From positions 177,551-217,748 of the forward strand of contig CAZIMC010000002.1 in NCBI GenBank assembly GCA_964540475.1: 40,198 nt of DNA, read 5' to 3'. The position numbers and the translations under genes were made by a program. A model generated the notes under the pieces. It saw only the letters and a list, made by a program, of their open reading frames with translations, had not been told where the DNA came from and searched no databases. Positions 3,331 through 17,256 of the stretch are shown piece by piece. Position 1 is the first letter of the stretch. The number at the start of each line of letters is the position of its first letter. Source of the DNA: an uncultured Gammaproteobacteria bacterium (lineage in GTDB: Bacteria; Patescibacteriota; Microgenomatia; UBA8517).

Positions 3331-5865
3331 ATGTGGAGAGAGCGTCTAAGATATAAACGCGGTTTCTATTCCCGTTCGATCAAAAAGAGTCAAAATATGG
3401 CAAAAATCGCTAAGTTTGGCTTTTTCGGGGTAATAGGCCTTTTTGTGCTTTCGTTTTTAATTATTCCTGTTTTGGCTTTTACTTTGCCGGCCCCTGATGA
3501 AGTAGTAAGGCGCGATGGTTTCTCAACGAAAATATTGGATAGAAATGGAAATGTTTTATACGATATATTTGATAACCAGCGAAGAACGCACGTTGCGCTT
3601 GACGAGATCCCCGAAACACTTAAACAGGCAACCATTGCTATTGAAGACAAAAACTTTTATAAGCATCAGGGATTTGACCCTTTTGGAATTATCCGCGGCC
3701 TCTCAAGAGTTGTTACTGCTGGACGTGCCCAAGGGGGCTCAACTTTAACGCAGCAACTTGTTAAGAACGCACTTCTCTCTTCTGAGAGATCCATCTTCAG
3801 AAAGATAAAAGAGTTTGTATTGGCAGTTCAAATTGAAAAGAAATATAGTAAAGACCAGATTCTGGAACTTTATCTGAATGAGATACCATACGGTGGAACC
3901 GCTTACGGTGTTGAAGCTGCAAGCGAGATTTATTTTGGAAAGAAGGCCCGGGATTTGGATTTGGTTGAATCGGCAGTTTTAGCGGGAATTCCCCAGCGGC
4001 CTTCTTCCTACTCACCCTTTTCTTCTACCCCCAAAGCTTATGTAGGAAGGGCAGAGCAGGTATTACGGCGTATGCGCGAGGATGGATATATTACCAAAGA
4101 GGCTGAAGAGGAAGCTAAAAATAAGTTGCCAAATGTAGCCTTCCAAACAAGAGATGCCTCGTTTAAGGCCCCCCACTTTGTTCAGTATGTACAAAAAATT
4201 CTTGAAGAGCGTTACGGCGCGTCGGTTTTGGAGAGCGGTGGATTGAAGGTTACTACAACTTTAGATCTTGAACTGCACGATAAAGCCCAAGCGATTGTGC
4301 GTGAGGAAATTTCAAAGGTAGAAGCTCAAAGAATTACAAACGGCGCAGTTGTTATTATGGACCCTGAGACAGGCGAAATTCTTTCGATGGTGGGATCTAA
4401 AAACTTTAATGATCCCAATTACGATGGACAGGTCAATGTTGCCACTTCGCAGAGACAGCCTGGTTCAGCATTTAAGCCGATTGCATATGTAACAGCATTT
4501 AAAAAGGGTTATACAGCCGCAACTATGATTATGGATGTTCCTACGGTGTTTCCTGCCGGTGCCAACCAGCCGGATTATCAACCGGTTAACTACGATGGAA
4601 AATTTAGGGGGCCAATACAGATCAGGTATGCATTAGGTAACTCTATAAACATTCCCGCGGTTAAGATTTTGGCAATGGTTGGGATTCGGGATGTTCTTCA
4701 AACCGCAACAGATTTGGGTATTACTACGCTTGCGCCTAATGCCGACACTCTAAGACGCGTTGGTTTATCACTTTCCCTGGGAGGAGGAGAAGTCCGGCTT
4801 TTGGATTTAACCTCCGCCTATGCTGCGTTTATGAATGAAGGACACAAGGTTGACCCGGTTGCCATCCTTAAAGTTGAGGACTCAAGCGGGCGCGTATTGG
4901 AAGAAGCTAAGCCCAAAAAGGGCAGAAGAGTTTTATCTGAGGGCGAGGCATTTTTGATTGCCAATATCTTATCAGACAATTCTGCAAGAAGTGATGTCTT
5001 TGGTCCCAATTCGCTTCTTAATATTCCCGGGAGACAAATCGCAGTCAAGACAGGTACTACGAATGACAGGCGTGATAACTGGGCAGTTGGCGGAAACCCT
5101 CAAGTTGTTGTGGGTGTTTGGGTCGGGAACAACGATAATAGCCCGATGGGTAATGTTGCCTCTGGGGTTTCAGGCGCAACCCCAATATGGCGCAAGGCTC
5201 TACTGGAAAGCTTAGCCGGTAAACCAGTAGTTTCTTTCAGGCAGCCGGATTCGGTTGTTACAGCGGAAGTCGACCGTGTGTCGGGTTATGCGGCACACGA
5301 TGGGTTTGCTTCAAGACAGGAGTTCTTTGTTCGCGGTACTGAACCTGGACAAGACCTTGTTCATGTAAAACTGAAAGTTTGCAAAAACGATGGCAAGCTG
5401 GCAACCCCTGCGGACGTTTCATCCGGAAATTATGATGAAAAGGAATTCTTTATGTTCAAGGAGGAAGATGCAACCGGATCACCAACTAATCGGTGGCAAG
5501 AGGGTATACTTTCTTGGATTGCTACACAAAACGATTCAAAATATCACCCGCCTACTGAGTATTGTGGTACAAGTAATCCGGTTAGCGCAGGCTTTCATGA
5601 GCCTGGTAACCAATCGTCAAACTTGCCAAACAGTTTTACTGTGAGAATAAGAGCTGAATCAACCTCTAAAATTAACAGGGTGGAGCTGTTTGTTAACGAT
5701 CAAAATGTACGAAACTTTGATGGTCCTCCCTATAACTACGATGCAAATTTGCAAAACGGTGTATATAAACTCAAAGCCATAGTTAAAGATGAAAATGGGA
5801 ATCAGGCTGAAAATACGATCACTGTTGGTGTGGGGACTGTCTGGAACCCTTCCCCCGCGCCTTAA
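3331..5865 (+). CDS. class A penicillin-binding protein (transglycosylase/transpeptidase) with C-terminal Ig-like domain
   Basis: EDKNF and QGGSTLTQQLVKN (GT51); SAFK (SxxK), SIN (SxN), KTGT; N-terminal TM; start placed at ATG 3331 (alternatives 3313, 3397). Confidence 0.92.
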   Translation: MWRERLRYKRGFYSRSIKKSQNMAKIAKFGFFGVIGLFVLSFLIIPVLAFTLPAPDEVVRRDGFSTKILDRNGNVLYDIFDNQRRTHVALDEIPETLKQATIAIEDKNFYKHQGFDPFGIIRGLSRVVTAGRAQGGSTLTQQLVKNALLSSERSIFRKIKEFVLAVQIEKKYSKDQILELYLNEIPYGGTAYGVEAASEIYFGKKARDLDLVESAVLAGIPQRPSSYSPFSSTPKAYVGRAEQVLRRMREDGYITKEAEEEAKNKLPNVAFQTRDASFKAPHFVQYVQKILEERYGASVLESGGLKVTTTLDLELHDKAQAIVREEISKVEAQRITNGAVVIMDPETGEILSMVGSKNFNDPNYDGQVNVATSQRQPGSAFKPIAYVTAFKKGYTAATMIMDVPTVFPAGANQPDYQPVNYDGKFRGPIQIRYALGNSINIPAVKILAMVGIRDVLQTATDLGITTLAPNADTLRRVGLSLSLGGGEVRLLDLTSAYAAFMNEGHKVDPVAILKVEDSSGRVLEEAKPKKGRRVLSEGEAFLIANILSDNSARSDVFGPNSLLNIPGRQIAVKTGTTNDRRDNWAVGGNPQVVVGVWVGNNDNSPMGNVASGVSGATPIWRKALLESLAGKPVVSFRQPDSVVTAEVDRVSGYAAHDGFASRQEFFVRGTEPGQDLVHVKLKVCKNDGKLATPADVSSGNYDEKEFFMFKEEDATGSPTNRWQEGILSWIATQNDSKYHPPTEYCGTSNPVSAGFHEPGNQSSNLPNSFTVRIRAESTSKINRVELFVNDQNVRNFDGPPYNYDANLQNGVYKLKAIVKDENGNQAENTITVGVGTVWNPSPAP

Positions 5866-6250: not shown

Positions 6251-8203
6251 TTAGGAAGATAATTTTCCTCCGAATTTGCTTTCGATGGCTTTTAAAATCT
6301 TATTTCTTGTATTTGCAACCTCGGTATCTGTAAGAGTTTTTGTTGGATGTTGATACCAAATTCGGAAAGTGTAATTACTATTAAACGTGTCTTTAAGTTC
6401 TACATTTTTTACAAGCTTGCTCACTTTTGAAATTTCACCCAATACCCCTCCTATGCGTGTTTTAGGAGGGAGAATCAAAGTTATATCCTCGATTTGTGGC
6501 GGATATTTTGGTATTGGAACAAACTTAGCAATCGGGCTATGTAAAGTTCTTAATTTTTGTACATCAAATTCGTAATATAAAAGGCCATTATTTTCCAGGA
6601 CTCCCAATTCTCCTATTACATTAGTGGAATGTGCAAAAACAATCCTTTGGGAGGGTAGGTAGTTTTTAGAGTCTACCGGCTTTACTTCATAATTTACCCG
6701 GAGCTCCTTCAGTAGCCCCTCAACAAATCCTTTTGCTATGCGGTAGTCATAATTTGCCAGTATTCCACCCAGCTTCATACATTCCTCGGGAGTATCATTT
6801 TTGCGAGGGATGTATACATTGGCAATTTCAAACAGATGAAATGGCTCTTTTATGTGCGAATTGTCATTTGCCGCTTGAGTAAGCGAAGGCATTAGCGAGG
6901 TTCTTAAATATTGAAAATCGGAGCCTAATGGGTTTTTAAGTTTCAAAGCACTTCCCTCGACATCTTTTTCAGCAACAAGCGACAGTGTAAAAATTTCTGT
7001 GGCCCCGAAACCCTTTAGAGTGGATTTAATTTTCATTTCAAATTCAAATGGTGAGTCAGCAGGAAAATCCGGAAGACTCCCTGTCATAAGTTTTGATGGC
7101 AATCTGTGGTAGCCGTAGATTCTTGCAACTTCTTCAACCAAATCTTCCGGTATATTAATGTCTCGTGCTCTCCATGAGGGAACCTTTACATTTATAGTAT
7201 TTTTCTTTCTTTGAACCCCAAACCCCAAACTGGTTAAAATGCTGTCAATTTCTTGCTCAGCAATTTCAACACCCAATATCTTGTTAATAAAATCATTTGA
7301 AATACTAACCGCTTTTGGTTTGTAAGGTGAAGGATGAATATCAAGAATTTGCTTTTCAGCTTTACCTTTTGTTAACTCTTCAATAAGCTTGATACCCCGA
7401 AGTATGGTGGGAGTTACTGCTTCTGTATCTAATCCTTTTTCGAATAGCTCCGAAGCTAAAGTCCTATGTGCTAAAGTCATCGAGGTTTGCCTAATTCTTA
7501 CCGGATTGTAGGTTTGGACAAACAGTAAAACATTCTTAGTATTTGTATCAACTGCTGAGTTAGCACAACCCATTATTCCTGCTAAGTCGATCAATTTTCC
7601 TGAACCATCTTCTATGACAATGTCTCCCCCAGAAAGCTTGTGAGTTTTTCCATCGAGCGTCGTAACAACCTCCCCTTTATTCGATTCGCGTAAAATCATT
7701 TTTGCTCCCTGAATCTTGTCATAATCAAATGTGTGCACTGGTTGCCCTAGTTCGTGCATTAAGTAATTTGAAATATCAACAACATTGTTTATTGCCCGTT
7801 CTCCCACAAGTTCAAGTCTTTCTCCAAGCCACTTTGGAGACGAGGTAACATTAACATCATTAATTAACACAGCCGCAAATCGACCACAGAGATTCGTATC
7901 AACCCGAGCTTTGAGATATGGCACTTTTTGGGTAAATTTGGAAGGTTTTATGTTAAGCTTGTTTAAGGTAGCCTTAACACCGAATCGTGGCAGGATAACT
8001 GAAGCCTCTCTTGCAATCCCATATACGGAGGCTGTATCCACTCTATTTGTTGTAACTTCGATCGTATACAAATAATCATTACCTGACTTAGCCACCTTTT
8101 CAACAGACGGCCCACATAATGATAAGCATTCAGCAATTTTAGAGGGCTTAGCGTCAGTCTTTAAAAACTCCCTAAGCCATTTGTCTGATATTAAAATGTC
8201 CAT
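6251..8203 (-). CDS. pheT: phenylalanine--tRNA ligase beta subunit (short form lacking the tRNA-binding OB insert)
   Basis: IEVTTNRVD, NNVVDISNY, VPSWRARDI..EDLVEEVARIYGY, LRTSL, C-terminal ferredoxin-fold anticodon domain. Confidence 0.95.
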   Translation of the reverse strand: MDILISDKWLREFLKTDAKPSKIAECLSLCGPSVEKVAKSGNDYLYTIEVTTNRVDTASVYGIAREASVILPRFGVKATLNKLNIKPSKFTQKVPYLKARVDTNLCGRFAAVLINDVNVTSSPKWLGERLELVGERAINNVVDISNYLMHELGQPVHTFDYDKIQGAKMILRESNKGEVVTTLDGKTHKLSGGDIVIEDGSGKLIDLAGIMGCANSAVDTNTKNVLLFVQTYNPVRIRQTSMTLAHRTLASELFEKGLDTEAVTPTILRGIKLIEELTKGKAEKQILDIHPSPYKPKAVSISNDFINKILGVEIAEQEIDSILTSLGFGVQRKKNTINVKVPSWRARDINIPEDLVEEVARIYGYHRLPSKLMTGSLPDFPADSPFEFEMKIKSTLKGFGATEIFTLSLVAEKDVEGSALKLKNPLGSDFQYLRTSLMPSLTQAANDNSHIKEPFHLFEIANVYIPRKNDTPEECMKLGGILANYDYRIAKGFVEGLLKELRVNYEVKPVDSKNYLPSQRIVFAHSTNVIGELGVLENNGLLYYEFDVQKLRTLHSPIAKFVPIPKYPPQIEDITLILPPKTRIGGVLGEISKVSKLVKNVELKDTFNSNYTFRIWYQHPTKTLTDTEVANTRNKILKAIESKFGGKLSS

Positions 8204-8204
8204 T

Positions 8205-9230
8205 TTAGAATTGATTTAAAAACCTAAGATCCGTACTGTATAAAAGCCTAAGATCAGGTATTTTAAGACCAGATTTCATCATCATTACTCTTTCAACTCC
8301 GATACCAAAAGCAAAACCAGAGTTTTTGGTGGGGTCGAATCCGCCATTTTTAAGTACAACCGGGTGAACCATGCCGGCTCCCCCAAGTTCCAGCCAACCT
8401 TCCTTGCAAACCTTACAACCTGTGCCACTACAAATATCACAGGTTATATCAACTTCAAATGATGGCTCTGTAAACTGAAAGTGATATGGGCGCAGTCTGG
8501 TTTTCCTTTCCTGCCCAAAAAATTGCCCAGCAAAGTGATCGATAACACCCTTTAAATGAACAATCGATATATTTTCATCAACAACCAAGCCTTCAAACTG
8601 ATGAAACATTTGAGTGTGGGAAGCATCCGATTGTCGCCTATAACACTTGGCGATATTCATCATCCTAATTGGAGGCCTACCAACCCTTTTCATTTCTCTT
8701 ACTTGACCTGATGAAGTGTGAGGTGTGAGGACCATTTTACCCAATTTTGGGTGTGGAGGAACGTCGACAAAAAAGGTCTCCCATTCGTCTCTTGCAGGAT
8801 GCCCTTTAGGCATATTGAGTGACTCAAAGGGGTACCAATCCCACTCAACTTCCGGATATCTAACCCTAACAAATCCTATTTTTTCAAAAACTGATGAAAT
8901 TTCTTGAATTGCAGTGGTTAATAAATGAAGATGACCTTGTGGTGGCTTAATGCCAGGAATTGTTGGGTCAAACCAGCTTCTAGCATTTTCCTGGAAGCTT
9001 AATTTTTTTGAAGCAATTTCAGAAAGAAGTGTGTTTTTTGCTTCGTTTAATGTAATTCCAACTCGTTTTTTTTCCTCGCTACCCAAACCTCTGATGTCTT
9101 TTATGAGCTTTGTAAACTTTCCGCTTTTACCAAGGTATGCAATCCTAATTCTTTCCAACTCTTCCTTATCCCCAGCCTCCATAATTTGCGCCAGGGCCTC
9201 ATTTTTTATATTGTTAACTTCTTCCTGCAT
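8205..9230 (-). CDS. pheS: phenylalanine--tRNA ligase alpha subunit
   Basis: HPARDEWETF, LTPHTS, FHQFEGL, RPYHFQFTEPSFE, GFAFGIGVER; start at ATG 9230. Confidence 0.97.
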   Translation of the reverse strand: MQEEVNNIKNEALAQIMEAGDKEELERIRIAYLGKSGKFTKLIKDIRGLGSEEKKRVGITLNEAKNTLLSEIASKKLSFQENARSWFDPTIPGIKPPQGHLHLLTTAIQEISSVFEKIGFVRVRYPEVEWDWYPFESLNMPKGHPARDEWETFFVDVPPHPKLGKMVLTPHTSSGQVREMKRVGRPPIRMMNIAKCYRRQSDASHTQMFHQFEGLVVDENISIVHLKGVIDHFAGQFFGQERKTRLRPYHFQFTEPSFEVDITCDICSGTGCKVCKEGWLELGGAGMVHPVVLKNGGFDPTKNSGFAFGIGVERVMMMKSGLKIPDLRLLYSTDLRFLNQF

Positions 9231-9239
9231 GTTTTGTAA

Positions 9240-9266
9240 CAAAAAAAGCTCTCTGGTGGAGAGCTT
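9240..9266 (-). terminator. attenuator terminator upstream of pheS
   Basis: Minus strand AAGCTCTC-CACCA-GAGAGCTT followed by a T run. Confidence 0.9.
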
Positions 9267-9294
9267 GCTTATAAATTAATATACCCCCACCAGC

Positions 9295-9339
9295 TTAATT
9301 GATTCTAAAGCAAAAGCCGCTGAAGGAAAAGGTTTTCAT
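9295..9339 (-). CDS. Phe-rich leader peptide of the pheST attenuator (pheM-like), MKTFSFSGFCFRIN
   Basis: 14 codons, 4 Phe; ATG overlaps the rplT stop (ATGA); followed by antiterminator strand CTGGTGGGGG and a terminator; same position as E. coli pheM. Confidence 0.85.
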   Translation of the reverse strand: MKTFSFSGFCFRIN

Positions 9340-15587: not shown

Positions 15588-15640
15588 GCCTGGACAGATA
15601 AATTATACTTGATCGCTCAAGTTTTTTCCAACCTCTATAT

Positions 15641-15838
15641 TTATTTTTCAGTAGACGGTGGATCTTCTAAAACACCCTCAATTGCGCTATTTAGATCAAT
15701 TCTGTGCGCCTCTAACACTTCCTGATCAGTAAGTCCAGCAACATTTATGCCTTTTCTGTCCAAGGCCAATGCAGCTCTGACAACATCTGCTCTACCCTTC
15801 CAGGGCGATCCGCCGTTACAAGATGATTCTATACTCAT
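15641..15838 (-). CDS. 65-aa orphan protein downstream of the Phe-type attenuator
   Basis: Strong SD AAAGGAGGTGA before ATG; acidic C-terminus; no motif recognised. Confidence 0.75.
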   Translation of the reverse strand: MSIESSCNGGSPWKGRADVVRAALALDRKGINVAGLTDQEVLEAHRIDLNSAIEGVLEDPPSTEK

Positions 15839-15865
15839 AAATTAAACTCACCTCCTTTCACCAAC

Positions 15866-15889
15866 AAAAAACCCCGATTTTATCGGGGT
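15866..15889 (-). terminator. attenuator terminator
   Basis: ACCCCGAT-AAA-ATCGGGGT followed by TTTTT. Confidence 0.9.
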
Positions 15890-15934
15890 ATGTTGCTAAA
15901 ATTAATTTTTTATAAACGCAACTTTACCCCCTGT

Positions 15935-15982
15935 TTAGGAGGTAAAGTAAAATCCAAAAAGGATATTGTTAGTTGCGTTCAT
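15935..15982 (-). CDS. Phe-rich leader peptide MNATNNILFGFYFTS, apparently leaderless
   Basis: 15 codons; F-G-F-Y-F cluster; ATG 7 nt after the -10 box; part of a four-segment attenuator. Confidence 0.8.
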   Translation of the reverse strand: MNATNNILFGFYFTS

Positions 15983-15989
15983 TTTACCT

Positions 15990-16018
15990 ATTTTATTTTT
16001 ATTATATTAGCTTGTCAA
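15990..16018 (-). promoter_or_regulatory. sigma70-type promoter
   Basis: TTGACA (16018-16013), 17 nt, TAAAAT (15995-15990). Confidence 0.8.
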
Positions 16019-16200
16019 TCCACCGATTGAGGAGTGGTTTCAGTTCTAACAAACGGCTTATGATCGGTAGCGTTCCAGCTAACATTCTTATGACCAAGCA
16101 TTCTGGCTAATTCCGAACCGATTTTAACTTTATCGCTACTAGTAGCCCGTTTTGCTTTTTGTTCAGCCGTGGCTTTCCCGTTTTCAAATTTTCTATCCAT
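16015..16200 (-). CDS. 61-aa basic orphan protein
   Basis: GGGGTGA SD before ATG 16200; directly follows the Zn-ribbon ORF. Confidence 0.65.
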   Translation of the reverse strand: MDRKFENGKATAEQKAKRATSSDKVKIGSELARMLGHKNVSWNATDHKPFVRTETTPQSVD

Positions 16201-16205
16201 AATTA

Positions 16206-16427
16206 TCACCCCATTCTCTCGATTCCAGCTAGTGAATAATTGCGTCCTGGATTCCTAATTTCACCTTCAGCACCAACAGACCAACCACATCCGTTACAAT
16301 GTGTTTCTAGCACATATGTTTCACCATGATTTCCTTTAAAGGAAATTTCATATGCCGAGCTGTTATTTATTCCCTGACTTTCGCAATTAGGACAAGCTCC
16401 TACTTTTTTTGCTTTACTTCCTGCCAT
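16206..16427 (-). CDS. 73-aa putative zinc-ribbon protein
   Basis: CPNC ... HCNGCG (two CxxC pairs); first gene after the Ile-type attenuator. Confidence 0.7.
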   Translation of the reverse strand: MAGSKAKKVGACPNCESQGINNSSAYEISFKGNHGETYVLETHCNGCGWSVGAEGEIRNPGRNYSLAGIERMG

Positions 16428-16446
16428 ATTTTTGTTTTATAAAACT

Positions 16447-16472
16447 AAAAAAACCTCTCTGGTGAGAGGTTT
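16447..16472 (-). terminator. attenuator terminator
   Basis: AAACCTCTC-ACCA-GAGAGGTTT followed by TTTT. Confidence 0.9.
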
Positions 16473-16511
16473 AGAATTGTTTATTTGATTAAATTGGTTA
16501 TTCTCTCACCA

Positions 16512-16571
16512 TTAAGCGCTAACCCCAATAAAGAGGTTAATGCTAATAATGAGTGAAAGATTTCTTATCAT
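16512..16571 (-). CDS. Ile-rich leader peptide MIRNLSLIISINLFIGVSA, apparently leaderless
   Basis: 19 codons, 5 Ile + 3 Leu + 1 Val; ATG 6 nt after the -10 box; followed by antiterminator strand TGGTGAGAG. Confidence 0.8.
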   Translation of the reverse strand: MIRNLSLIISINLFIGVSA

Positions 16572-16577
16572 ATATAT

Positions 16578-16607
16578 ATTTTAGTTTCTAGCAGTTGTTT
16601 TTGTCAA
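16578..16607 (-). promoter_or_regulatory. sigma70-type promoter
   Basis: TTGACA (16607-16602), 18 nt, TAAAAT (16583-16578). Confidence 0.8.
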
Positions 16608-16620
16608 GCTGAAAGACTAA

Positions 16621-17256
16621 TTATCCAGCAGAGCGTTGGAGATAGTGATCCGGGGCAAGAAGGAAAGAGCTTCCCTTTTTCTTGTACATTGACCAGTAAT
16701 TTTTCTTTTGCGCGCGTTTGTTGGTTGCGTGAAGCCAGACTGCTGCGCTATCAATTTTCTTTCTAAAATCCTTCAAAAATTCCAATAGCTTTTCAAAGAA
16801 TATAACATGGTAGATTCCCGGATTAACTGGAGCCTGCATTGTTGCAACTTTAAGCTCATCGGAGATATTTTGAGTAGTTTTTGCTAGACTCATGACCTCC
16901 TGGGTCAAAGCCTGTAGCTGTACACGTAGCTCGTTAGCCTTTTTTTCTACAAGGACTTTTTCCTCCCGTGCAAGGTTCCTTTCAAGAGAGATTTGCGCTT
17001 TTAATTTTTTGTTTTCTTCAAGCTTGCCAGAAAAAACTTCACCCATTTCAATGGATTCACCCGGGGTGATTTCACCTGAATATTTTTTGCTGATTCTGGG
17101 TCCAAATAACTGATCGAAAAATTCCTGCGAGGTGTCTTGCAGCAGATCCTTTTTCATAGTTTTTACGCCAGTATTTCCTATATCCTTTAGAGCTTCCAGG
17201 ACACTTGCCTGCCTTCGTTGTTTTTGGCCTTTTGGTTTTTGATTTTTAGGATCCAT
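16621..17256 (-). CDS. conserved hypothetical coiled-coil protein (DUF5660-like)
   Basis: 211 aa, central coiled coil, PVNPGIYHVIFFEKL; family name from memory, unverified. Confidence 0.75.
   Translation of the reverse strand: MDPKNQKPKGQKQRRQASVLEALKDIGNTGVKTMKKDLLQDTSQEFFDQLFGPRISKKYSGEITPGESIEMGEVFSGKLEENKKLKAQISLERNLAREEKVLVEKKANELRVQLQALTQEVMSLAKTTQNISDELKVATMQAPVNPGIYHVIFFEKLLEFLKDFRKKIDSAAVWLHATNKRAQKKNYWSMYKKKGSSFLLAPDHYLQRSAG

Follow-up and report, generated by a model that had tools for sequence, protein, structure and literature searches.

A probable phenylalanine-codon attenuator ahead of a conserved microprotein gene in a candidate phyla radiation bacterium

Does a 15-codon, phenylalanine-rich open reading frame (ORF) upstream of a gene for a 65-residue protein serve as a sensor of phenylalanine (Phe) supply in a bacterium of the candidate phyla radiation (CPR)? 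This question is raised by a 40,198-nucleotide (nt) stretch of contig CAZIMC010000002.1 (the whole stretch is referred to here as the window), on whose minus strand the short ORF and a set of alternative hairpins precede the 65-residue gene, which we call p65. Leader-peptide attenuation is a textbook mechanism in enterobacteria; to our knowledge, very little has been described of regulation in CPR bacteria, and these organisms, Woesebacteria included, are generally thought to be unable to make their own amino acids and to rely on outside supply. We find that the element is most likely (with a probability of roughly 0.8) a classical ribosome-mediated transcription attenuator, which would read the supply of charged tRNA-Phe and gate the transcription of p65, a reading that draws on its anatomy, its fold statistics, its conservation and the covariation of its stems. 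From the promoter to the downstream gene, the element consists of the following features:

16018..16013, minus strand: -35 hexamer TTGACA, overlapping the TGA stop codon of the upstream 64-residue ORF (p64)
15995..15990, minus strand: -10 hexamer TAAAAT, with a 17-nt spacer; the promoter matches the consensus at 11 of 12 positions
Between the -10 hexamer and the leader ATG, minus strand: the 7 nt AGGTAAA
15982..15935, minus strand: leader ORF MNATNNILFGFYFTS, 15 codons plus the stop codon TAA
15948..15937, minus strand: segment 1, ACUUUACCUCCU, reaching from codon 12 through codon 15 to the first stop-codon base
15932..15918, minus strand: segment 2, AGGGGGUAAAGUUGC, partner of segment 1 (and of leader nt 1-12) or of segment 3
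15896..15882, minus strand: segment 3, GCAACAUACCCCGAU, pairs with segment 2 in the antiterminator and doubles as the terminator's 5' arm
15878..15866, minus strand: segment 4, AUCGGGGU, and the U run
15856..15848, minus strand: strong Shine-Dalgarno (SD) sequence of p65, AGGAGGTGA, 9 nt before its ATG
15838..15641, minus strand: p65, 65 residues, the putative regulated gene and a member of a conserved small-protein family

The leader ORF reads ATG AAC GCA ACT AAC AAT ATC CTT TTT GGA TTT TAC TTT ACC TCC TAA, with Phe at codons 9, 11 and 13 and tyrosine (Tyr) at codon 12. Segment 1 (ACUUUACCUCCU, 15948..15937) pairs across the loop AAAC with AGGGGGUAAAGU (15932..15921) to give a 1:2 helix of 12 pairs, one of them G-U. 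Segments 2 and 3, which are separated by a 21-nt A/U spacer, can pair through GGGGUA..GUUGC (within 15932..15918) and GCAAC.UACCCC (15896..15885). The 3:4 terminator hairpin, ACCCCGAU-AAA-AUCGGGGU (15889..15871), also reported by a terminator scan, is followed by a U run ending at 15866, 27 nt before the ATG of p65, which lies directly 3' of the terminator. The core energies of the three helices are -11.4 (1:2), -11.2 (2:3) and -11.6 kcal/mol (3:4), and the 2:3 helix reaches -15.6 kcal/mol with its GUUGC/GCAAC extension, the structure obtained with a ribosome at the last Phe codon. The promoter, the ORF, the three pairings, the U run, the strong SD and the 65-residue ORF, all described in an original prediction made from the DNA letters, were confirmed base for base at these positions of the minus strand. 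The spacing between the -10 hexamer and the ATG makes a leaderless, or nearly leaderless, leader mRNA probable.

Together these features suggest a course of events, and from them we infer the transcription start, translation of the leader, ribosome stalling, the kinetic choice between 2:3 and 3:4, specificity for Phe and whatever role p65 may have. Transcripts starting at the TTGACA/TAAAAT promoter would carry the leader AUG at or within ~2 nt of their 5' end, and RNA polymerase could alternatively enter the element by reading in from an upstream transcript that carries p64 and, before it, a gene we call p73. A ribosome would then translate the 15 codons of the leader. When Phe-tRNA is plentiful it would reach codons 14-15 or the stop codon and cover the start of segment 2, and with no ribosome present the 1:2 helix would form; in both cases segment 3 would be left free, the 3:4 hairpin would form and transcription would end at the U run (15871..15866). 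Were the ribosome to stall with F11, Y12 or F13 in its A site, it would cover segment 1 and leave segment 2 exposed, and the 2:3 helix (GGGGUA..GUUGC with GCAAC.UACCCC) would form before segment 4 is made, thereby pre-empting the terminator, such that p65 would be transcribed and then translated from its strong SD.

Does the RNA fold in a manner that allows this? The 162-nt region containing the element folded to -49.1 kcal/mol, compared to -28.5 +/- 3.5 kcal/mol for dinucleotide shuffles (z = -5.9; 0 of 200 shuffles as good), and its minimum free energy (MFE) fold is the terminated state, made up of the terminator and a long 1:2 helix in which leader nt 1-12 are paired as well, with AGUUGCGUUUAU. 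As a test of the switch, equilibrium folding of the whole leader cannot discriminate; it was replaced by folding of the transcript cut before segment 4, validated on pheM of Escherichia coli, in which a 27-nt ribosome footprint was kept unpaired at each A-site codon and the paired fraction of the terminator 5' arm was read out (its ceiling in the target is ~0.62, as at most 5 of the 8 arm bases can pair in 2:3). This fraction was 0.01 with no ribosome, rose to 0.60-0.62 when F11, Y12 or F13 occupied the A site, and fell again to 0.12 at T14 and to 0.01 at S15 and the stop codon. Masking at T4/N5 gave a partial sequestration of 0.39-0.40, and F9 lay outside the effective range of the target. 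As a positive control, the same script was applied to the E. coli pheM leader (NC_000913.3 b1715), whose verified 14-residue peptide agrees with the sequence given in the original prediction; it gave 0.09 with no ribosome, 0.68-0.70 from F6 to S13, 0.58 at T14 and 0.09 at the stop codon. Set against this control, the modelled target shows the geometry of a working Phe attenuator.

How readily could such an arrangement arise by chance? When the terminator was fixed and the 90 nt upstream of it were shuffled, 5 of 300 shuffles reached the native amplitude of the switch, and among the short ATG-initiated ORFs of the window 21 of 375 hold at least three Phe within eight codons, making Phe-richness alone weak evidence. 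Since Phe-rich short ORFs are not rare in this AT-rich window, the argument rests on the coincidence of the ORF, the position of its codons and the structure, and above all on conservation.

Conservation was assessed in a comparative set of 7-9 lineages with ~4 stem types, found via p65 itself. In 7 of the 9 lineages the p65-family gene is preceded by a Phe-rich leader ORF with the four-segment layout, so that homologs of the 65-residue ORF do keep Phe-rich leaders, a check that the original prediction had proposed. Homologous Phe-rich leaders precede the family gene in six lineages (L022, L028, L029, L033, L036 and L038), in these arrangements:

L022 and its duplicates (P0005; named Woesebacteria RBG_19FT_COMBO_42_9 in one source): thrS-infC-rpmI-rplT, leader MTKVLSVTFFSFTLS plus stop codon with 1:2, 2:3 and 3:4, p65 homolog, pheS-pheT
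L028 (P0002): arrangement as in L022, leader MKEIVSVRIFGFAFS plus stop codon, the unit lying between rplT and pheS
L038 (P0014): rplT, leader MTAQKLMLSFAEAFFTSKNGGSLGCRK plus stop codon (begins MTAQKLMLSFAEAFFTS), terminator, homolog
L036 (P0015): rplT, 78-residue ORF, leader MKATKNIRFLKFYLAECGAGLGI plus stop codon (begins MKATKNIRFLKFYLAE), terminator, ~170 nt, homolog
L029 (P0012): rplT, 124-residue ORF, leader MQTKKNDQFFTFFFTTRMRGSLGW plus stop codon (begins MQTKKNDQFFTFFFTT), terminator, homolog
L033-35 (P0016): trigger factor, DUF5660, leader MTKMTFIGFLFNLSSGRVGNYS plus stop codon (begins MTKMTFIGFLFNLS), terminator, homolog, tRNA-Val, tRNA-Ala, which is the position of the unit in the window

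The contigs of L038, L036 and L029 stop short of any pheS. For L029, the frame of the first ATG was rejected, its 36-residue ORF being implausible and running through the terminator; the Phe frame begins at an upstream ATG that overlaps the end of the previous ORF. A metagenome scan with a five-sequence alignment returned three loci, all of them duplicates of known ones.

The stems of these leaders have diverged while keeping their pairing. Four terminator stem types occur among the lineages, namely ACCCCGAU/AUCGGGGU, AACCUCCC/GGGAGGUU, ACCCCGC/GCGGGGU and ACCUCC/GGAGGU, and across 8 sequences the terminator helix is 100% paired, with changes on both sides (compensatory changes) in 3 of its 7 pairs. 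The type of segments 1 and 2 changes along with that of the local segments 3 and 4, segment 2 copying segment 4 in each lineage, and the 2:3 duplex has a mean energy of -15.4 kcal/mol in cognate combinations compared to -11.2 kcal/mol when segments of different lineages are combined. A MAFFT alignment of the 1:2 hairpins was structurally inconsistent, and in place of a formal count of 1:2 pairs we used per-sequence duplex energies. In mask folding, sequestration peaked at the Phe codons in all related leaders and fell once the ribosome advanced. The comparative, covariation and mask-folding evidence thus lends computational support to the Phe-codon attenuator that had been proposed.

What is conserved in the leaders themselves is the Phe run (2-5 in-frame Phe codons immediately upstream of segment 1) and, after it, the ACC-YCN codons that make up segment 1; the leaders range from 15 to 27 residues in length and their sequences are otherwise not conserved. 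The MNA start and the three early asparagine (Asn) codons, both pointed out in the original prediction, are not conserved, the other family leaders starting with MTK, MKE, MKA, MTA or MQT. In 6 of 10 Phe leaders (those of the window, L022, L028, L038 and L016, and the one preceding a 76-residue ORF in L025) a sigma-70-type promoter with 10-11 of 12 consensus matches has its -10 hexamer 7-10 nt upstream of the start codon of the leader. In the remaining four (L029, L033, L036 and a leader of pheS in the window) the ATG directly adjoins or overlaps the stop codon of the gene before it, an arrangement that suggests translational coupling.

Judged by these sequences, the unit of the window is homologous to the leader found before p65-family genes, with pheST behind them, in other Woesebacteria, and it sits at an alternative conserved site, between DUF5660 and tRNA-Val. 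The gene order around it is conserved (trigger factor-DUF5660-...-tRNA-Val-tRNA-Ala-thrS-infC-rpmI-rplT-pheST), and the unit and pheS share a strand, with the unit ~6.4 kb upstream. The claim that the element is not linked to pheST therefore holds locally, and fails in L022 and L028, where the unit stands between rplT and pheS, and at the scale of the 6.4 kb that separate the two in the window. It is not a pheST leader in the strict sense, as it precedes p65 and pheS has its own leader; the units of L022 and L028 do qualify as such. To us it looks like a real but displaced Phe-sensing switch, ancestrally tied to the pheST neighborhood.

Several observations weigh against the attenuator. The leader holds only three Phe codons, of which just two (and one Tyr) fall within the effective range, compared to five Phe codons in E. 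coli pheM, and its SD is weak at best (AGG, 4 nt upstream), leaderless initiation being assumed. At equilibrium the full-length leader adopts the terminator at every masked codon (P = 0.95); this is expected for attenuators, and it means that read-through would depend on co-transcriptional kinetics, with competition between 2:3 and 3:4 assumed. In L025 (P0011) and L037 (P0008) the family genes stand behind a different leader, of the type called leader2 below, rich in isoleucine (Ile), valine (Val), leucine (Leu) and Phe codons, so that p65-family genes are not tied to Phe in every case. Nothing in the function of p65 accounts for its control by Phe. Finally, we found no RNA or ribosome-profiling runs carrying the element sequence, which bears on use of the promoter, termination at the U run and translation of the leader.

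Could the same features be explained in another way? The hairpin and U run might be the plain intrinsic terminator of the p73-p64 operon, in which case the ORF and the alternative pairings would be there by chance and p65 would be expressed by leaky read-through or not made at all. The terminator does lie 126 nt after the p64 stop codon and leaves no room for a promoter between itself and p65, and chance is helped by Phe-rich short ORFs being fairly common here (the 21/375 given above) and by the ~2% of shuffles that give a comparable switch. We nevertheless consider this quite unlikely, for the short ORF, the in-frame Phe run leading to segment 1, the 2:3 alternative, the terminator and the p65-family gene recur together in six other lineages, diverged and with covarying stems, and the ORF begins exactly 7 nt after the consensus promoter, an arrangement shared with L022 and L028. 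An attenuator that senses general translation capacity, another amino acid (Tyr, Asn, threonine or serine) or several hydrophobic ones, and not Phe specifically, is unlikely as well. Phe is the sole residue enriched in all related leaders (2-5 before segment 1), neither Asn nor Tyr is conserved, and a homologous leader is predicted to control pheST itself in L022 and L028; in its favor are the presence of Tyr12 in the effective range, the 0.39-0.40 obtained by masking T4/N5, the two family members with a mixed Ile/Val/Leu/Phe leader and the fact that any strong pause at codons 11-13 would act alike.

Two further explanations dispense with the leader as a sensor read by the ribosome, and both are very improbable. 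The 15-residue ORF could encode a functional hydrophobic micropeptide, such as a membrane peptide or a type I toxin, with the RNA structure serving mRNA stability or translational control; its C-terminus is indeed hydrophobic, and the 5' end of the ORF, start codon included, lies in the long 1:2 stem of the MFE fold, as in some type I toxin mRNAs. A product of this sort is hard to reconcile with leaders whose length and sequence are not conserved beyond the Phe run and the segment-1 codons, and the position of the stop codon relative to the hairpins varies, which fits a sensor and not a product; nor was an antisense RNA or an Rfam toxin family at threshold found. The choice between 2:3 and 3:4 could likewise be set without a ribosome by a trans factor (a protein, an uncharged tRNA in the manner of a T-box, or a small ligand), given that alternative terminator and antiterminator folds are common to all such mechanisms and that pheST is under T-box control in Firmicutes (PMC1262725). 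Against this, no T-box or riboswitch family matched positions 15600..16650 in Rfam at E-values up to 10, and the element spans only ~117 nt and lacks unpaired blocks conserved across relatives, the conserved part being the ORF with its in-frame Phe codons. The Phe-codon attenuator remains the reading we adopt in what follows.

What, then, is the gene that it would control? The 65-residue ORF had been called an orphan and turned out to be a member of a conserved small-protein family. A first, word-indexed search returned p65 itself on its own contig and nothing else; an exhaustive HMMER search then recovered 10 small proteins of 61-96 residues (E 6e-10 to 2e-4), with family profile E-values of 5e-24 to 5e-17. 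Large HMMER matches (P0006, P0007, P0009 and P0013) are repeat proteins of 650-3975 residues that look spurious, and were dropped. The family consensus is C-x-G-x-SPWK-(S/G)-x-x-E-V-x-x-A-x-L-x-L-x-x-x-G-(I/V)-x-(I/V)-AG-(L/M/V)-(S/T)-x-x-E-V-L, and its members have so far occurred in Woesebacteria-type contigs only. This sequence evidence shows p65 to be a genuine, conserved microprotein. AlphaFold models it as a hairpin of two helices (12-28 and 38-55, with a pLDDT, the predicted local distance difference test score, of ~90 there and a mean of 73), in which the conserved CxGxSPWK N-terminus is poorly modelled, and p65 had no matches in Pfam, among PDB sequences or by Foldseek against the PDB (best E = 1.7). 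The functional lead is one of position, as the gene repeatedly follows a putative Phe attenuator, which it separates from pheS in two lineages; by this guilt by association with pheST, p65 may have a role in the biology of phenylalanyl-tRNA synthetase (PheRS) and tRNA-Phe. In two lineages an 86-87-residue ORF with no Pfam match lies directly before the p65 homolog, overlapping it in L037 (247-724) and ending 1 nt upstream of it on the P0004 contig, and could be a second partner gene of the family. Also in the lineages with pheS behind the homolog, the spacer between the two genes (L022 4292-4377, L028 3732-3780) contains a conserved block, CTATTTTCTCAAYCAAGCCTATACTATAAAATGGGTAT, which includes the -10-like hexamer TATACT and may be an internal pheS promoter that bypasses the attenuator; a similar AGCCTATACT is found before P0015 in L036.

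The closest known counterpart of the element is E. coli pheM, the attenuator of pheST-ihfA. The two have ORFs of 14 and 15 codons, Phe runs that end in F-Y-F followed by serine or threonine, 1:2, 2:3 and 3:4 pairings with a U run and a matching on/off profile in mask folding, and in L022 and L028 the unit occupies the rplT to pheS junction, as in E. coli. They differ in that the target gene encodes a 65-residue protein and not pheST, lies ~6.4 kb from pheS, is preceded by three Phe codons in place of five and belongs to a CPR host, and in that 7 nt lie between the target's -10 hexamer and its AUG, the 5' region of pheM being longer. PheM and MNATNNILFGFYFTS share MNA, an I and F-Y-F followed by S/T, in peptides that are short and constrained by their Phe codons. 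Since these PheM-like details (MNA..., FYF, S/T) are not shared by the element's own relatives, homology with PheM cannot be claimed; beyond the Phe run the resemblance is probably due to chance or convergence, MNA being absent from the relatives' leaders, much as the original prediction had allowed. A bolder and tentative idea is that a pheM-type leader at the junction of rplT and pheS may be ancestral to CPR bacteria and Proteobacteria, and not convergent.

The best Rfam matches to the element, all below threshold, included Trp_leader (RF00513; 27.3 bits, E = 0.004) and Phe_leader (RF01859; 27.0 bits), which belong to the same class of cis-regulatory leader (pheL-pheA in the case of Phe_leader); with gathering thresholds of 41 and 55 bits, respectively, the element falls outside both families, and at gathering thresholds Rfam had no match in the whole window except tRNAs. 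Both families control biosynthetic operons, which CPR bacteria largely lack. Among described systems, the leaderless polycysteine short ORFs of mycobacteria, which act as cysteine-responsive attenuators (bioRxiv 10.1101/834739), likewise consist of a leaderless first-cistron short ORF enriched in one amino acid, whose supply regulates the downstream genes; they differ in phylum and amino acid, and our element has an explicit intrinsic terminator and antiterminator and a leaderless start deduced from promoter geometry. Classical attenuators before aminoacyl-tRNA synthetase genes are found in gamma-proteobacteria (pheST) and Streptomyces (trpS and leuS), while Firmicutes use T-boxes (PMC1262725); the Streptomyces cases are also synthetase-linked leader-peptide attenuation outside gamma-proteobacteria, and differ in preceding the synthetase gene itself. 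Full-text searches of the literature found no description of leader-peptide attenuation in Patescibacteria/CPR. The class of mechanism is already known, and what adds interest here is its presence in a CPR host, its probably leaderless start and its predicted control of an uncharacterised microprotein. The leaders also supply a group of short, probably leaderless ORFs that are overlooked by gene callers.

Is the element an isolated case? The window contains a second Phe leader, that of pheS:

9339..9246, minus strand: leader ORF MKTFSFSGFCFRIN plus stop codon, with a terminator, directly before pheS (8205..9242)

Its ATG overlaps the rplT stop codon (ATGA), and it is followed by a CUGGUGG/CCACCAG antiterminator and the terminator AAGCUCUC-CACCA-GAGAGCUU with a U run; it has no sequence similarity to the leader of p65. 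Elsewhere, L025 (2662-2780) carries a Phe leader, MASTRRSFFFFFTPII plus stop codon, before a 76-residue ORF unrelated to p65, with a terminator, ACCCCGAU-UAG-AUCGGGGU, nearly identical to that of the target, and L016 (11181-11287) carries a Phe leader, MSKKLISFFFFAFNPTKAG plus stop codon, and a terminator before a long ORF that, by eye only, resembles a GCS2-like ligase of L015. The sequences of L025 and L016 point to a small Phe-attenuator regulon, and Phe-codon attenuation, with predicted instances before pheST, the conserved p65 family and other genes, seems to be a device that this lineage uses repeatedly, the target being one such case. Were the mechanism true, these reduced genomes would have a direct readout of tRNA-Phe charging, and its effects would extend beyond the synthetase. 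We put forward, tentatively, that Woesebacteria possess a small Phe-starvation regulon run wholly by leaderless leader-peptide attenuators, which would include pheST and the p65 family, and that p65 is a hitherto unrecognised partner in, or modulates, either the function of PheRS/tRNA-Phe or what the cell does when Phe runs short.

A further leader, which we term leader2, lies upstream of the element, so that the interval between DUF5660 and tRNA-Val contains, in order, leader2, p73, p64, the Phe leader and p65:

16607..16445, minus strand: leader2, comprising a promoter, the ORF MIRNLSLIISINLFIGVSA plus stop codon, the GGUGAGAG antiterminator and the terminator CCUCUCACCAGAGAGG with a U run; it heads p73-p64
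16427..16206, minus strand: p73, Zn-ribbon-like, with two CxxC pairs (CxxC...CxxC) and weak Zn-ribbon matches
16209..16015, minus strand: p64, 64 residues, lysine-rich, its start overlapping the p73 stop codon

The p73-p64 transcript would continue into the Phe leader. Given this order, transcripts from the leader2 promoter would meet two attenuators in series before p65, and those from the Phe-leader promoter only one. On the 3' side of p65, a separate promoter precedes tRNA-Val(GAC). No relatives of p73 or p64 were found in any fetched locus, the large protein database not having been searched for either.

Leader2 belongs to a conserved family with a sigma-70 promoter whose -10 hexamer stands 8-12 nt upstream of a hydrophobic ORF of 17-23 codons (for instance MIRNLSLIISINLFIGVSA, MRNISLSIISFFLFIEG, MTIISLILVNFVLFIEG and MKSLYFLIVWIVLFMGAV), followed by a hairpin, CCUCUUUAUUGAGG, the GGUGAGAG antiterminator and the terminator CCUCUCACCA(C)GAGAGG with a U run. 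It was located at nine further sites:

L003 ~6650-6766
L006 6978-7156
L011 ~8130-8269
L012 ~8110-8255
L013 ~3980-4105
L015 ~7360-7494
L016 ~8300-8432
L037 ~90-232
L025 3826-3976

The genes that follow vary, and include small ORFs, the GCS2-like ligase, p65-family genes and proteins of 400-650 residues with no assigned function, the last of which precede an M20 peptidase or AlaDH-like gene. The best Rfam match of leader2, His_leader at 26.7 bits, is below threshold. From its sequence, leader2 looks like an Ile/Val/Leu/Phe-codon attenuator that is widespread in Woesebacteria.

The genome to which the window belongs is that of a Candidatus Woesebacteria bacterium (Patescibacteria/CPR). The closest relatives of the window's DUF5660 protein (41-62% identity) come mostly from metagenome-assembled genomes labelled Woesebacteria, Microgenomates or Patescibacteria group, and none of p65, p64, p73 or the Phe leader was present in the DUF5660-anchored loci of 20 species genomes. 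In independent wastewater DNA runs, contigs were identical to the window across 15636..16139 except for an A>G change at 16069 (run X1), which lies within p64 and outside the element. The interval from DUF5660 to tRNA-Val(GAC) (window 15588-16620) is hypervariable among Woesebacteria (compared with L001-L020 and L025), ranging from 44 nt in L001 to several kb, while its flanks are kept, trigger factor-DUF5660 on one side and tRNA-Val-tRNA-Ala-thrS on the other. In other genomes it holds lineage-specific small ORFs or an M20 peptidase; the L025 interval contains toxin-antitoxin genes of the HEPN/nucleotidyltransferase, AbiEii and PIN kinds.

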